A DNA stretch of 64,000 nt from an uncultured Flavobacteriales bacterium (GCA_937139155.1 CAKZPI010000037.1:68195-132194), one strand, 5' to 3'. Positions 30,645 through 38,691 are shown, numbered from the stretch's first letter. Notes: generated from the sequence alone by a model not told the origin. Numbers and translations are program-made.

Positions 30645-31393
30645 TTGAGAAGAAATGACTCTAAGAAAGGCAACTATTACTATGGAGCACGTTACTACGA
30701 CCTGAAGATTTCTGTGAATCCGTTGGCGCATAAATACCCCAGCCTTTCGCCTTATGTATTTACAGGTTATAACCCCATTATGTTGGTGGATCCGGATGGA
30801 ATGAGGATAGCTCCTAGAATGGATGATACCGATAAACAGTTAATTAATCTATTTACAAACGGGGACCAGGGAATGGCGGAAATGTTATTTTTCAGTCCGA
30901 AGGGTATCCAAAGAAAATAATAGTCAAAAAGTTAACCACTATGAGGCCAAGACGAAGTTTTGGACTCAACGTGGATTTAGTAGGCATGCTGAGAAACTAG
31001 GAATTGCCTTTTCAGGATCAGAGCTTGATGAAGCTTATGGTTTGTATAAGTTTGTAAGAAAAAAAAGTCACAGAAATAGCCATGCTCGAAACTGGAACGT
31101 CTGAACCTGGCACTGCGGTAGGGGTTGGGCCTCCTCGTACAAGAGGAAAAGCCTTTAAAAATGTCCTAGATTTACTTTCGGAAGGTCCAATAAATGAGCA
31201 AGATGAGGATGAGATTTTCTCAGAAAACAGTTTTGGTGGGGCAGAAATTAACAATGACGCCCTGTTTTTTAAAGATCGAAAAATCTCATTGAATAAGATT
31301 GATGGCATTATTTTAATAAGGGTTGATCCGACAATGAATTCTGAGGCAAAAACAGATATGATGAGACAAACCATAGATGATTGGGAAAAATAA
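30645..31393 (+). pseudogene. RHS cassette A: decayed RHS-associated core plus C-terminal toxin domain in three frames
   Basis: GNYYYGARYYD.KISV[WLSV lost]NPLAHKYPSLSPY...DPDG; stop 30920; frame +1 open 30844-~31066; A8 run 31059-31066 leads into the frame of ORF 31082-31393. Confidence 0.75.
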
Positions 31394-31400
31394 TGGATTT

Positions 31401-31964
31401 ATGTTTAAAACAATACCCCTTATTTCAGCAGGGATGCTAGTGGTCACATCCCTATTTGCACAAAATGTATCAGATAGTACCCATTTGGACACCTTTCATA
31501 TTACTTTGGTGGATACCAATTTTATCGAGCTTTCAGACGGTGATATGTTTGTGAAATTCAAAGACTCATTGCCGGATGGCTATTATATTTTGGATTGTTA
31601 CGATGATTTTGGAGGATTGTATCGAACCTATGAGATTAAATTTATTGAAGGATTACGTCAAGGGAAGTTTATCTCGGATGGTTGGGGCGCTAGGTCGACA
31701 TTCACTTATACCAACGACACATTGCAAGGCCCATTTTACGTACAAAACAGAGGAAAGCCCCCGTATATGTATGGGGACTATGTGAATGGAAAAAGACATG
31801 GGCTTTGGACCATTCTACCGTTTACTACACAGAATTCTGATGGAGACATGGTTAAGGGAATACAAATTTTGGAGTATAACCAGGGTGTGATTGTTAATCG
31901 AATTTTGATTCCGGCAACCTCCAGAAAAGTAGAAAGGTTTCTTGAGAAGTTGTATTGGGATTAA
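31401..31964 (+). CDS. Exported MORN-variant repeat protein (YwqK-like), putative immunity of cassette A; likely start ATG 31401
   Basis: Signal peptide MFKTIPLISAGMLVVTSLFAQ; repeats EGLRQGKF / NDTLQGPF / NGKRHGLW. Confidence 0.65.
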   Translation: MFKTIPLISAGMLVVTSLFAQNVSDSTHLDTFHITLVDTNFIELSDGDMFVKFKDSLPDGYYILDCYDDFGGLYRTYEIKFIEGLRQGKFISDGWGARSTFTYTNDTLQGPFYVQNRGKPPYMYGDYVNGKRHGLWTILPFTTQNSDGDMVKGIQILEYNQGVIVNRILIPATSRKVERFLEKLYWD

Positions 31965-32157
31965 GAGTGAAGCTTTACGGTGTGAATCGGAATGCTCAAT
32001 GGCAATCCTAAAGGATTAGATTTTTTCTTTTTCGAAGAACCTGTTCTTTATAAAAAGTGGAGTGTCTTAAATAAGGGAAGGGTTAGAAAAAGCTCTAGTT
32101 GGCAAAAGAAAACTTAATTAACGCAAAAAGGAAAATAGACTGCCGCTTCAGCAGTAA

Positions 32158-32247
32158 CGAGCTAGGAGCTTTCTAATATCTAACTATAAGGTATATATTC
32201 CCGGCACAAAAAGTTATGTTCCATATACTGAAAAATCAAGAGATTGA
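32158..32247 (+). pseudogene. C-terminal remnant of a JAB-like toxin gene
   Basis: RARSFLISNYKVYIPGTKSYVPYTEKSRD* resembles the tails of ORFs 34619 and 36241; its TGA overlaps the next ATG (TGATG). Confidence 0.6.
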
Positions 32248-36240: not shown

Positions 36241-37146
36241 GTGAATCCAAGCCTAACAAATCAAACTCAAGTTAAAGACAAAAACCTCTACGAATACAAC
36301 GCCGGCTCAGAAGACTACAACTCCCCTTACCGCTTCAATGGTAAAGAGTTAGACCCTGAGACAGGCAACTACTATTATGGAGCTAGGTACTACGACCCGA
36401 AGATAAGTGTGTGGTTATCTGTGGACCCGCTGGCGCATAAGTACCCTTCTTTAAGTCCTTATGTGTTTACTGGGAATAACCCAATTATGTTGGTGGACCC
36501 GGATGGGAGGGATATATGGGAATTGGATTTAAACGGAAATGTTTTAAATCATACCGTTGATGAGTCCCAGGATACCTTTATAGTTCTTGACAATGATGGT
36601 AATTATGTAAGTGGTATTTCTTTTGAAGGTGGGACTATTGAAGCGTATAGAAATCAGACCACATCTTTTAATGATTTTCATAGTGGAGGTAAAGAAGTTG
36701 TAGGTGATATTGACATTAATAAAATCCGGGGGGATTTTGAGTCAGAAGCCTTGTTTACTTTCATGGCTGATAATACAAATGTTGAGTGGAATGAAATAAA
36801 GACTGGGGAGTCTGGAGGCTCAGGTCTTGGGTTTTTAACAACTGGTCATAGAGAAGGCCAAAATCCGGGGCTGAACGACTTGTTAAGAGGCCAATTAATA
36901 AATGACTATACGATAAGAGAAATAAATCACAACCATCCTAAAGGTTCATCTTATCCTTCTGGTTCCTTTAATGCTGAAATTAACGGTCAAATGCTTGGTG
37001 CAGGAGAATGGGGAGATGTGAAAACCGCAGCGAATATTCAAGATTGGTACAATCGAGCATACCCTAATAGGTCAGGCATCATCGAATTCAATGTATATAC
37101 TACAAAGAATGGTTTTAAAGCATATGATAGAAATACAAGAAGGTAG
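36241..37146 (+). CDS. RHS cassette D: short N-terminus, RHS core and JAB/MPN-like toxin domain
   Basis: GTG start; DYNSPYRFNGKELDPETGNYYYGARYY...DPDG; FMADNTNVEW; HNHP-x6-S (36928 onward) ...GEWGD. Confidence 0.82.
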   Translation: MNPSLTNQTQVKDKNLYEYNAGSEDYNSPYRFNGKELDPETGNYYYGARYYDPKISVWLSVDPLAHKYPSLSPYVFTGNNPIMLVDPDGRDIWELDLNGNVLNHTVDESQDTFIVLDNDGNYVSGISFEGGTIEAYRNQTTSFNDFHSGGKEVVGDIDINKIRGDFESEALFTFMADNTNVEWNEIKTGESGGSGLGFLTTGHREGQNPGLNDLLRGQLINDYTIREINHNHPKGSSYPSGSFNAEINGQMLGAGEWGDVKTAANIQDWYNRAYPNRSGIIEFNVYTTKNGFKAYDRNTRR

Positions 37147-37151
37147 AGGTC

Positions 37152-37733
37152 ATGTACTACAGTAACATTATTATGTGCTTTCTCACTATTTCACTGCTGT
37201 TGAATCTTGATAATAAGTGTAACTATATAGTCACAGGGAGTCAAAAATGGTCAACTACGGATATCAGAGCAAAAGTGTTTAATAATGGCGATACAATTTT
37301 GTATGCCGACTCTGATAGTTTGTGGCAAAGAGCGAATCTAAAAAAGCTTCCGGCATGGTGCTATTCGAAGGATGGAAGAAGGGTTTTATATAATAGCTAT
37401 GTGGTCTCCGATAATCGATCAATTTGCCCAGAAGGATATCGGATTCCAACAAATAGAGACTGGGCATTACTTTTAAATGAGAATGGTGGGCCTAATTTAG
37501 CTCCTTCAAGATTTTTGAATACAGGCCGTGACTCGTGTTCAGAATTTTCTATCTACCCGACTGATTCAAGAAGCGTTAATGGTAGTTATGAGTTTGAAGG
37601 ATGTGCCGTTTTTTGGTCAAGTACTATGGTGAACTCGAGGTATTCTTATATTTTCATGGCTGAGGATTTAACTCTTACGTCTCAAACGCCTGATGGTACT
37701 GGGTGTGCAATAAGGCTGATTAAACGGAACTAA
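37152..37733 (+). CDS. FISUMP (Fib_succ_major) domain protein 3, putative immunity of cassette D
   Basis: Clearest copy: GSQKW...F.NGD.I..A...W..A...PAWCY...LYN.Y.V.D.R.ICPEGYRIP...DW..L ... FWSST ... G.AIRLIK; 5 bp after the toxin stop. Confidence 0.82.
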   Translation: MYYSNIIMCFLTISLLLNLDNKCNYIVTGSQKWSTTDIRAKVFNNGDTILYADSDSLWQRANLKKLPAWCYSKDGRRVLYNSYVVSDNRSICPEGYRIPTNRDWALLLNENGGPNLAPSRFLNTGRDSCSEFSIYPTDSRSVNGSYEFEGCAVFWSSTMVNSRYSYIFMAEDLTLTSQTPDGTGCAIRLIKRN

Positions 37734-37866
37734 TAACCCATGCTTTGTGCGTATTTAAGTTTTTCAGGCCACTGATGTTTAGCCCTAGCAACCCTCAAGA
37801 AGGTAACCAGTAGCTTGAGTGCGGTCACTGCTATACCTATGATGCTAAATTCTTTACTTTTATGAC

Positions 37867-38691
37867 ATGCAGAGAATAGAGACAGGCAACTATTACTACG
37901 GAGCTAGGTACTACGACCCGAAAATCTCTGTTTGGCTTTCTGTGGACCCGCTGGCGCATAAGTATCCGAGTCTTTCGCCTTATAACTTTACTGAGAACAA
38001 TCCGATAATGCTTCTTGACCCTGATGGTCGGTCCAGCAATCCTATCTATGATTTAGATGGAAACTTTTTAGGTACAGATGATCAGGGCTTGCAGGGTGAA
38101 GCGCTTGTTATGCTTCCAGAAGATTTCTCGCAAGGAATGTCTCACGCCGAAGCCAAGGACAAAAATTTAGGGCTAAGTGCTTTACATCTTGACAATAATG
38201 GTGACTTTCAGGAAGGTAGCGGTGGATTGGATTATGACCGATTAGCTGAACACAATAATGGATTGAGCGATAGACCTGATTATGATGGTGTAGTTACATT
38301 GGAGGAAGCGCAAGAATGGAGAAAATCTGGAAATGGGGAGCCTCTTTTTGTGGATTTTTCAAAATTTAAATTTACATCAAGCAGTTTGGATGTTGGTGAC
38401 ATAGGCGAGAGCGGTGAGCAGTATGTCAACTTTTTTAGCAGTTTTAATATACATAGTGGTGATGACAACGTAATTTGGAGACCAGCTTCAGATGAAACAC
38501 TTTCTGATGTATATGGTACAGTGAAAATAAAATTGCTTAATCGAGATAATGGAACTGTTATAATTCCTCCATTTAATAATGCTGGTCATTTTGATATTTA
38601 TAATTTTAGGGGGTGGAGGAAATTACTTCGTGGATCAGGGGACGATTTCGGTTTTATTGGTTATGGAAAAGGTAAGATAAATCTTAAATAA
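37867..38691 (+). CDS. RHS cassette E: RHS core (from 37879) plus C-terminal domain of unknown activity
   Basis: ETGNYYYG...DPDG; CT begins NPIYDLDGNFLGTDD and contains DG.VTL.EA..W...G.GEPLFVD. Confidence 0.8.
   Translation: MQRIETGNYYYGARYYDPKISVWLSVDPLAHKYPSLSPYNFTENNPIMLLDPDGRSSNPIYDLDGNFLGTDDQGLQGEALVMLPEDFSQGMSHAEAKDKNLGLSALHLDNNGDFQEGSGGLDYDRLAEHNNGLSDRPDYDGVVTLEEAQEWRKSGNGEPLFVDFSKFKFTSSSLDVGDIGESGEQYVNFFSSFNIHSGDDNVIWRPASDETLSDVYGTVKIKLLNRDNGTVIIPPFNNAGHFDIYNFRGWRKLLRGSGDDFGFIGYGKGKINLK

Follow-up and report, generated by a model that had tools for sequence, protein, structure and literature searches.

Fixed core joints in an orphan Rhs cassette array of an uncultured Flavobacteriales bacterium and a candidate two-recombinase element behind one of them

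Why should toxin-tip cassettes preceded by unrelated sequence begin their homology to the Rhs core at the very same codons? The question is raised by a 64,000-nt stretch of DNA from an uncultured Flavobacteriales bacterium (GCA_937139155.1, CAKZPI010000037.1:68195-132194; hereafter the window), in which the + strand carries, at 30657-39621, an array of six pieces that belong to a single Rhs core family, 3' of the ahpC, thioredoxin and DUF6952 genes. The original prediction placed four of the six junctions within about 30 nt, at the codons for ETGNYYYG, and took this for a recombination hotspot or a site-specific shuffling point. According to our analysis the ETG boundary is a fixed, inherited joint between upstream leaders and the core tail, and the spare cassettes probably begin at the same bases since promoter-like leaders were joined there. 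As to the origin of the joints, we give about an even chance to an explanation in which the array is a store of cassettes with fixed types of 5' end and two of its pieces (stub B and cassette C) were split by a mobile element that carries two tyrosine recombinases, int1 and int2.

Joints at the ETGNYYYG codons

The six core pieces and the segments that define their joints are:

30564-30657, + strand: flank of cassette A, a 94-nt repeat 91% identical to contig C43:50850-50943 (blastn against the genome)
30658-30920, + strand: cassette A, core tail from the ETG-equivalent codons AAG AAA GGC AAC TAT
32975-33135, + strand: stub B, with an L1-type leader and core from ENLYKY to ETGNYYYG, cut after TACGGAG
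33111-33135, + strand: left 25-nt ETGNYYYG copy, candidate attachment (att) core, attL side
34715-34739, + strand: right 25-nt ETGNYYYG copy, start of the core tail of cassette C
34715-35488, + strand: cassette C, from ETG to DPDGR and then a JAB-like toxin
36222-37146, + strand: cassette D, with an L1 leader, core from NLYEY and a JAB-like toxin
37879-38691, + strand: cassette E, core tail from ETG and a toxin without family match
39326-39621, + strand: cassette F, core tail from YRLNGK, starting at about 39326; its open reading frame (ORF) is short and truncated

The joints were read directly, from an alignment of all six and an ungapped stack of the fifteen core pieces in the genome. Core homology begins at 34715 in cassette C and at 37879 in cassette E, reading GAGACAGG in both, and both starts are preceded by non-core sequence that contains stop codons and belongs to leaders common to other loci. 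In cassette A the codons GGC AAC TAT run from 30669 and the ETG-equivalent codons AAG AAA occupy 30663-30668; since the upstream repeat ends at 30657, this joint lies 0-5 nt from the ETG codon. Stub B ends with ...TACTACGGAG at position 33135, and its last 25 nt (33111-33135, GAAACTGGCAACTATTACTACGGAG) agree with the start of cassette C (34715-34739, GAGACAGGTAACTACTACTACGGAG) at 21 of 25 bases, the four mismatches all being synonymous. The base-level description in the original prediction is thus borne out, namely the common starting base of C and E, the unrelated sequence before them, the end of B, its overlap with C and the closeness of the A joint to ETG.

The remaining pieces of the array, D (36222) and F, begin earlier in the core. 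Elsewhere in the genome, cassettes on contigs C1 (position 93572) and C33 (1851 and 3092) start at ETG or within 3 nt of it, and a second stub, C33:4563-4726, ends 4 nt past the equivalent of the end of B. A tight cluster of stub ends was nevertheless rejected: only B and C33:4726 agree to within 4 nt, and the other stubs (C33:6979, one on C26, and C1:95042) are decayed or end elsewhere. ARAGORN found no tRNA gene at the joints, and a search against Rfam returned one match at chance level.

Several observations on the surroundings of core pieces stand beside these results. The C43 copy of the 94-nt repeat is intergenic, in a non-Rhs context without tRNA, and has an internal repeat of TCTAATTGNGCCATTT. 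At C33:4563-5851 a stub ending in YYYRA is followed after 170 nt by a YefM/YoeB-type pair other than that of the window, and then by a cassette that begins at ENLYEY; that interval yielded no recombinase remnant. Small inserts interrupt other core pieces: a 16-nt insert before RFNGKE is shared by the stubs C26:97989-98040 and C1:94937-95042, a hairpin-containing insert of about 63 nt lies between YKFNA and ELDxETG in three cassettes of Mesonia oceanica (locus L100), and one of about 64 nt separates KEFD from QTG in locus L055. All of them sit at the same core places where cassettes begin, and they may be scars of insertion or excision.

Leaders, the insert between B and C, and intact elements in other genomes

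The following features lie upstream of the joints of C and E:

33139-33513, + strand: remnant of int2, the second tyrosine recombinase (profile positions 179-289 of 298, E = 4.5e-31)
33586-34112, + strand: YefM/YoeB type II toxin-antitoxin pair (Phd/YefM antitoxin 33586-33837, PF02604; YoeB toxin 33834-34112, PF06769)
34120-34566, + strand: non-coding stretch between the toxin-antitoxin pair and leader L4
34567-34714, + strand: leader L4 of cassette C, 90% identical to C1:93429-93571
37851-37878, + strand: leader L3 of cassette E, with a promoter-like box and an ATG at 37867, four codons before ETG

The -7 promoter element of Bacteroidota reads TAnnTTTG. A box resembling it, TACTTTTA at 37855-37862, makes L3 a candidate promoter, and L3 is found again at C33:3064-3091. 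The arrangement of a TAnnTTTA box, an ATG, 3-5 codons and ETG recurs in Croceimicrobium (L044) and in a Schleiferiaceae genome (L038), which argues for an old inherited gene start.

Leader L4 begins with a 20-nt motif that holds the CAATTG palindrome (TTTTTCAATTGAAAGAAAAA, 34567-34586), followed by an ATG at 34619 and a second palindrome, CTCGCGCGAG, at 34669-34678. Its predicted peptide, MQTSRIRY...FSREEKVSRGSLKKGV directly followed by ETG, is a degenerate form of a MGCLKLTY-type leader peptide. The 144 nt before cassette C align with the sequence that follows int2 in two contigs of Chryseobacterium sp. MYb7, in which int2 is 53% identical; the likeness lies in 21 nt surrounding the palindrome (TTTCAATTGAAA), in a CTCGCGCGAG-like palindrome and in the 40 nt nearest the joint. 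In L119, one of these contigs, it is another Rhs family (DYGMYDYGARMYMPDIGRW) that the leader joins, at the equivalent codons and with ...KSEV followed by DYGMYDYGARMY; the other contig (L120) ends 11 nt beyond the joint.

Searching species-representative genomes for exact occurrences of the 20-nt motif returned at least 119, overwhelmingly from Bacteroidota, and 82 occurrences in 80 loci were followed up among the matches listed. An Rhs tail lies 65-430 nt downstream of 17 of the 82, and in our 208-position core profile, built from 39 long copies, these tails begin only at positions 137-143, 153-156 or 168-177. In 13 of the 80 loci the motif has an int2 homologue on its own strand, which ends 0.5-2 kb before it and is usually preceded by int1. 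On its 3' side the motif is followed by a TAnnTTTG-like box, an ATG and the conserved peptide MGCLKLTY in frame with the tail; as its codons vary mainly at synonymous positions, this peptide is probably translated. At the fusion places the leaders end in ..SC.G before YKY, in ..SR.xLKxxV before E/D.G (the middle class, to which L4 belongs) or in ..SREEK.VQ. before W.SVDP. Two copies of the element in a single Bacteroidales genome agree at 100% identity across the leader and into the first core codons, after which identity is about 75%, the level typical of tails, a drop which places the end of the element at the joint. On the strength of these likenesses L4 may be the right-hand terminus of mobile elements that form a family in Bacteroidota, a proposal that we hold to be evenly balanced.

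The insert between B and C contains further traces of such an element. A profile built from ten full-length int2 homologues (298 positions) recognises the remnant, whose N-terminal two thirds are missing. The 117-residue ORF at 33160-33513 corresponds to the last 110 residues of proteins of 292-367 residues in 13 other genomes, found by six-frame search of 201 genomes of the order; Pfam returned nothing for this ORF alone, even at E <= 10. The full-length homologues have Phage_integrase and SAM-like domains, with weak similarity to XerD/XerC far below the equivalog cut-offs; int2 is a divergent tyrosine recombinase beside the canonical int1. Relatives that are intact carry small gene pairs at the place after int2 where the window has its toxin-antitoxin pair, and the non-coding stretch shares weak conserved blocks with the same place in Chryseobacterium elements. 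The predicted fold of 34120-34575 has a minimum free energy of -127.6 kcal/mol (z = -4.73), a value that none of 100 shuffles equalled. As for the flanks of the insert, B is 79% identical to the start of D (36222-36382), and C and D have an identical tail and homologous toxins with JAB-like domains (PF15659), 46% identical to each other. Since the left joint runs straight into the middle of int2, the original left end of the element is gone.

Of 10 loci around int2 homologues in other genomes, 9 have pieces of Rhs core in the same orientation and no more than a few kb away. The recurrent order is an Rhs tip, a gene in the immunity position, a helix-turn-helix (HTH) gene in opposite orientation, a protein of about 500 residues, int1 and int2, then sometimes two small genes, and finally an orphan Rhs tip. 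Besides Chryseobacterium sp. MYb7, intact elements are present in Flavobacterium macrobrachii an-8 and in a Bergeyella isolate (L152). The most informative case (L124) has a 6749-bp unit twice in tandem inside an Rhs gene, consisting of a core tail from NYYPFG, the C-terminal (CT) tip, an immunity gene, the HTH gene, a 508-residue protein, int1, int2 and two small genes. The long gene now closes with the tip that belongs to the unit, and another tip lies displaced beyond the second copy. A 32-nt block, CCTTTTGGATTGAAACATAAAGGCTATAATAA (PFGLKHKGYNN), is identical at all three joints, and the bases on either side of it alternate between a 'chromosome' and an 'element' version, the pattern expected from a crossover within it. 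L080 encodes a complete Rhs protein of 3449 residues, tip included; 3.9 kb separate it from int1 and int2, behind which lie a leader and an orphan tip starting at W.SVDPLAEK.

Two loci have other layouts. In L116 (G033:C26:1-20000) an int1-int2 element and a cassette led by MGCFKITY face five Rhs tip cassettes on the opposite strand, an arrangement that, unlike the co-directional window, could permit switching of tips by inversion. L123 (G046:C28:26000-44000) holds two identical 7.1-kb copies of an element with a primase-like protein of 843 residues, in which a CHC2 zinc-finger motif is recognisable by eye, and with int1 and int2; no Rhs tail was found nearby by profile search, and the element family may be using other targets as well.

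These layouts suggest a mechanism in which the 5' edges of the cassettes would not be truncations at random. Each cassette would have one of a few types of 5' end, a leader (with a promoter-like box, a start codon and in some cases a leader peptide) joined in frame to the end of the core at a fixed codon, ETGNYYYG being the joint of types L3 (E) and L4 (C) and also of cassette A. An element carrying its own core tail, toxin tip and immunity gene would use a short stretch of core sequence within its attachment site to recombine with a resident Rhs gene, and we infer that its recombinases would catalyse the exchange with the crossover in that stretch. The incoming tip would be fused to the resident Rhs shell, and the displaced tip, together with its immunity gene, would come to lie behind the outward-facing putative promoter and start codon of the element, a leader that might serve to keep the displaced immunity gene transcribed after the change of weapon. 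B and C would be the halves of one D-like cassette, split by an element that has since decayed; the 25-nt ETGNYYYG segment on both sides would be the shared attachment core, and a later deletion would have removed the sequence from the right edge of that segment through the middle of int2. Site-specific or att-guided insertion of a recombinase element is a plausible cause of the B/C joint, and the best available one.

It is tempting to generalise this mechanism, although we incline slightly against the wider claim. Bacteroidota would then carry dedicated elements for swapping Rhs tips, for which ETGNYYYG in the window would be one attachment site among about three such places in the core (YxPFG/YKFNGKE, ETGxYxYG and WxSVDP). 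Such elements would contain int1, int2, the HTH gene, the protein of about 500 residues, often a toxin-antitoxin pair, possibly a structured non-coding region, an Rhs tail, a toxin and an immunity gene, and the orphan Rhs arrays of the phylum would largely be stacked footprints of their integration.

Spread of the breakpoints and rival explanations

An even spread of breakpoints along the core, in a large set of orphan cores, was the outcome by which the original prediction was to be refuted. We surveyed 74 loci encoding the 51-residue tail, clustering the joints by similarity of the upstream 60 nt. The starts are not even, and the idea stands in this respect: they pile up at profile positions 117-123 (YLPFGE), 130-141 (before SPYKFNGKE) and 150-154 (ETG), positions that are uncertain by a few residues owing to the edges of the local alignments. 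The last interval holds 12 of 62 leader clusters (P = 0.0009 for that interval; P = 0.043 for the best five-position interval anywhere).

The hotspot proposed originally is thus supported as far as the unevenness of breakpoints goes, but its 'four of six junctions' overstates their independence. The joints are largely not independent, because cassettes with the same boundary share leaders by descent, and the independent events are far fewer than the cassettes. C and C1:93572 have 144 nt upstream in common (90% identity); E and C33:3092 have 28 nt in common, and C33:1851 has a similar layout; B, D, C33:454, C33:4707 and C17:1405 start at (WG)ENLYEY behind a common leader; F and C17:3138 start at YRFNGK behind a third. 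The genome has about eight joint types, of which three or four (E, C, A and perhaps C33:1851) lie within a few bases of ETG. By a rough hand estimate, made from about eight leader classes and about 330 nt of core tail and not with any tool, the probability that three to four independent joints fall within 6 nt by chance is about 0.02 to 0.0004. As the leaders carry promoter-like boxes and start codons, the boundaries are best described as conserved gene starts. Of the site-specific shuffling envisaged originally, an agent for the B/C split is plausible, given the int2 remnant and the likeness of L4 to an element end; current shuffling is not upheld. With int2 a remnant, no intact copy in the assembly and all cassettes co-directional, ongoing shuffling by the present gene set of this genome is unlikely.

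A number of findings weigh against the explanation by a recombinase element. In the window, int1 and two thirds of int2 are gone, and no intact int2 was found anywhere in the assembly; the joint between B and int2 is a deletion joint and not a clean element end, and one further assumption has to be made for the deletion to begin precisely at the border of the 25-nt segment. Inspected by eye, that segment showed no dyad symmetry of the kind usual in the core sites of tyrosine recombinases. No recombination product, circle or relative with an empty site turned up, and within each leader class the joint looks inherited, not re-made. The tandem units of L124, and the displaced tips, could also have arisen by homologous recombination in the shared core tail. 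A pattern search of 185,579 species genomes shows the exact class-153 leader end to be rare: it was met only in the Chryseobacterium contig and in one chance match without Rhs (Microscilla, L245). We also considered that recombinases accompany most arrays and that the CAATTG leader precedes most orphan tips, and rejected both: 73 of the 74 loci of the ETG core family have no int gene within 10 kb, and the leader is found at only 2 of the 84 orphan tips in these loci. With one locus in 74 and two tips in 84, most ETG-type joints, including that of L3 in cassette E, have no visible link to a recombinase.

The strongest alternative is that the cassettes are related by descent, with RecA-type homologous exchange in the 150-nt tail, that each truncation arose once, by an illegitimate event, the cassettes having since been copied, moved and supplied with new toxins as in the classical model of C-terminal displacement, and that the recombinase element is a bystander which happened to land in a hospitable array that the cell can do without. 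We regard it as unlikely, though a serious contender. It would account for the leaders shared by cassettes with the same boundary, the tails in this genome, at 75-90% identity over about 150 nt, are similar enough to be exchanged by homologous recombination, and the duplication joints of L124 fit unequal crossing-over equally well; the scarcity of recombinases near related arrays and the lack of an intact int2 in this genome also speak for it. It would not, however, be expected to bring three unrelated leaders (L3, L4 and the repeat before A) to within 0-5 nt of one another in a single genome, nor to let the same leader family meet different Rhs core families, between which homologous recombination is not possible, at equivalent codons. 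The restriction of the leader to three meeting places in samples from the whole phylum, the position of int1-int2 directly upstream of the leader in 13 loci and the loss of identity exactly at the joint between two element copies are likewise difficult to reconcile with descent alone.

A second alternative, which we consider rather improbable, is functional constraint. Cassettes starting at ETG would be stand-alone genes for small toxins, each made up of a start codon, the last 50 or so core residues with both Asp-Pro motifs (SVDP...DPDG) and the toxin, and selection would let through only fusions at a few structural boundaries, so that the boundary would be the edge of a protein domain and not a DNA site. 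In three genera the ATG of E-type leaders stands 3-5 codons ahead of ETG, the MGCLKLTY peptide is under constraint at the protein level and in frame with the tail, and every class of cassette keeps at least W.SVDP...DPDG. In a study of bee-gut bacteria orphan Rhs tips could be transcribed and active (PMC5727410). This constraint, however, leaves unexplained the stubs that end at the same segment (B and C33:4726) and the recombinase remnant adjoining B; some leaders are out of frame (in L126 a stop, seen by eye, lies two codons before YKYNGK), and cassettes A and F are truncated.

Chance, or an artefact of similarity fading upstream of ETG, is very improbable, for although local hidden Markov model alignments do pile up at the edges of conserved blocks, what lies upstream of C, E and A is stop codons, a leader common to other loci and the C43 repeat, and in D, B and F core sequence spans the codons at ETG, by which the artefact is ruled out for the window. 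Neither descent nor constraint is exclusive of the insertion of leader-bearing elements at fixed core segments, the reading that we prefer.

The array as a cassette store and its relation to known systems

Among the six core pieces, C, D, E and F score above the cut-off of the NCBIfam model for the Rhs-associated core (TIGR03696); cassette A, which matches from position 24, falls below it with 25.9 bits. The ORF of A (30645-30920) is short and its toxin part truncated. The tails end in DPDG or DAGG, with unrelated sequence thereafter, and ORFs 3-25 nt downstream of C, D and E occupy the position of immunity genes, from which their function is assigned:

35493-36140, + strand: putative immunity gene after C, 215 residues with a signal-peptide-like N-terminus, assigned by position
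37152-37733, + strand: putative immunity gene after D, Fib_succ_major (PF09603, 1.1e-15)

The next gene after cassette E (38716-39207) is lipoprotein-like. A third gene in the immunity position, 32244-32927, is not preceded by a toxin gene. Like the two listed genes it ends in ...RLIKK, and the three appear related by eye; only 37152-37733 among them reaches the Pfam family Fib_succ_major.

Neither a full-length rhs gene nor an ORF with RHS repeats was found in the window. Contig C30 holds an open frame of 2972 residues with RHS repeats that runs off the contig end and is probably the main rhs gene of the core family; in this draft assembly the linkage of the array to it is not readable, as C30 rhs reaches the contig end. 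The same core family is also present on contigs C1, C17, C33 and C26 of the 3.0-Mb assembly of this marine-type genome, and related core-tail loci point to Flavobacteriales near Cryomorphaceae, Schleiferiaceae, Owenweeksia and Croceimicrobium. That the array at 30657-39621 is a store of cassettes for Rhs toxin tips and their immunity genes seems to us about as probable as not.

Orphan toxin arrays of Rhs and contact-dependent inhibition systems are usually put down to an unspecified 'C-terminal displacement'. Arrays of orphan rhs-CT/immunity pairs and the model of C-terminal displacement were reportedly described by Jackson et al. 2009 and Koskiniemi et al. 2014; to our knowledge, no enzyme or vehicle for the displacement has been identified. 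The array in the window resembles such arrays in its co-directional cassettes, each with a core piece, a variable toxin after DPxG and an immunity gene, and in tips that are exchangeable through the shared core. Unlike them, it is not headed by a full-length rhs, the main gene being on C30; its core pieces of 51 residues begin at fixed codons behind conserved leaders, and one of these leaders corresponds to the end of an element with two recombinases. Arrays of orphan Rhs tips and C-terminal displacement as such are already well known (Poole et al. 2011, PMC3150448; PMC5727410), and Steele et al. 2017 noted integrase-like genes near the Rhs loci of bee-gut bacteria, for which a role in capture was guessed (PMC5727410). 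Full-text search of a collection of papers returned no description of fixed core joints, of the MGCLKLTY leader or of the int1-int2 element, nor did a search for the leader peptide string find a paper.

Another described system of a like kind is rAID-1 of Bacteroidales, where arrays of orphan immunity genes have a XerD-like recombinase at their head (Ross et al. 2019, 10.1101/471110). It is defined by a recombinase at least 44% identical to that of B. fragilis, heading at least two co-oriented genes of low GC content, and its authors regarded it as integron-like, with intergenic motifs and a mechanism left without test (10.1101/471110). By description, the recombinases not having been compared by sequence, the two systems share a XerD-like tyrosine recombinase beside co-oriented toxin-defence genes and conserved intergenic motifs. 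They differ in that rAID-1 has one recombinase and immunity genes only, whereas here two recombinases belong to a larger element with a regulator and replication-like genes, the cassettes keep whole toxin domains and the Rhs tail, and the conserved element is a leader fused to coding sequence.

Some integrative elements, such as phages and islands whose attP includes the 3' end of a tRNA gene, rebuild their target gene on integration. The proposed element would resemble them in carrying a copy of the 3' part of its target, so that the crossover leaves a complete gene at attL and a displaced fragment at attR. The rebuilt gene would here, unlike there, gain a new toxin end and the displaced fragment a putative promoter and start codon, the target being a family of protein-coding repeats and not a tRNA gene.

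Integrons, with IntI acting on attI and attC, and shufflons, with Rci acting on sfx and pilV, also combine a dedicated tyrosine recombinase with a store of exchangeable ends or cassettes. An integron is not supported, the full-length int2 homologues being far below the cut-offs of the integron-integrase models (25.8-35 bits against 265 for TIGR02249; 16-18 against 435 for NF011946). No attC-like hairpins were identified, although no search aimed at attC structures was made, and the conserved element lies, unlike in integrons, at the 5' end of the cassette and is partly coding. A shufflon working by inversion does not fit either, because all six core pieces of the window are on the + strand.

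If the proposed mechanism is correct, the combination of a fixed joint, a conserved promoter-bearing leader and a two-recombinase element would provide a concrete mechanism for C-terminal displacement and would explain how immunity to the old toxin is retained upon a change of weapon. The leaders and joints are of practical use as annotation marks, showing many of the short genes annotated as 'RHS repeat-associated core domain' in Bacteroidota to be organised cassettes and not random pseudogenes.

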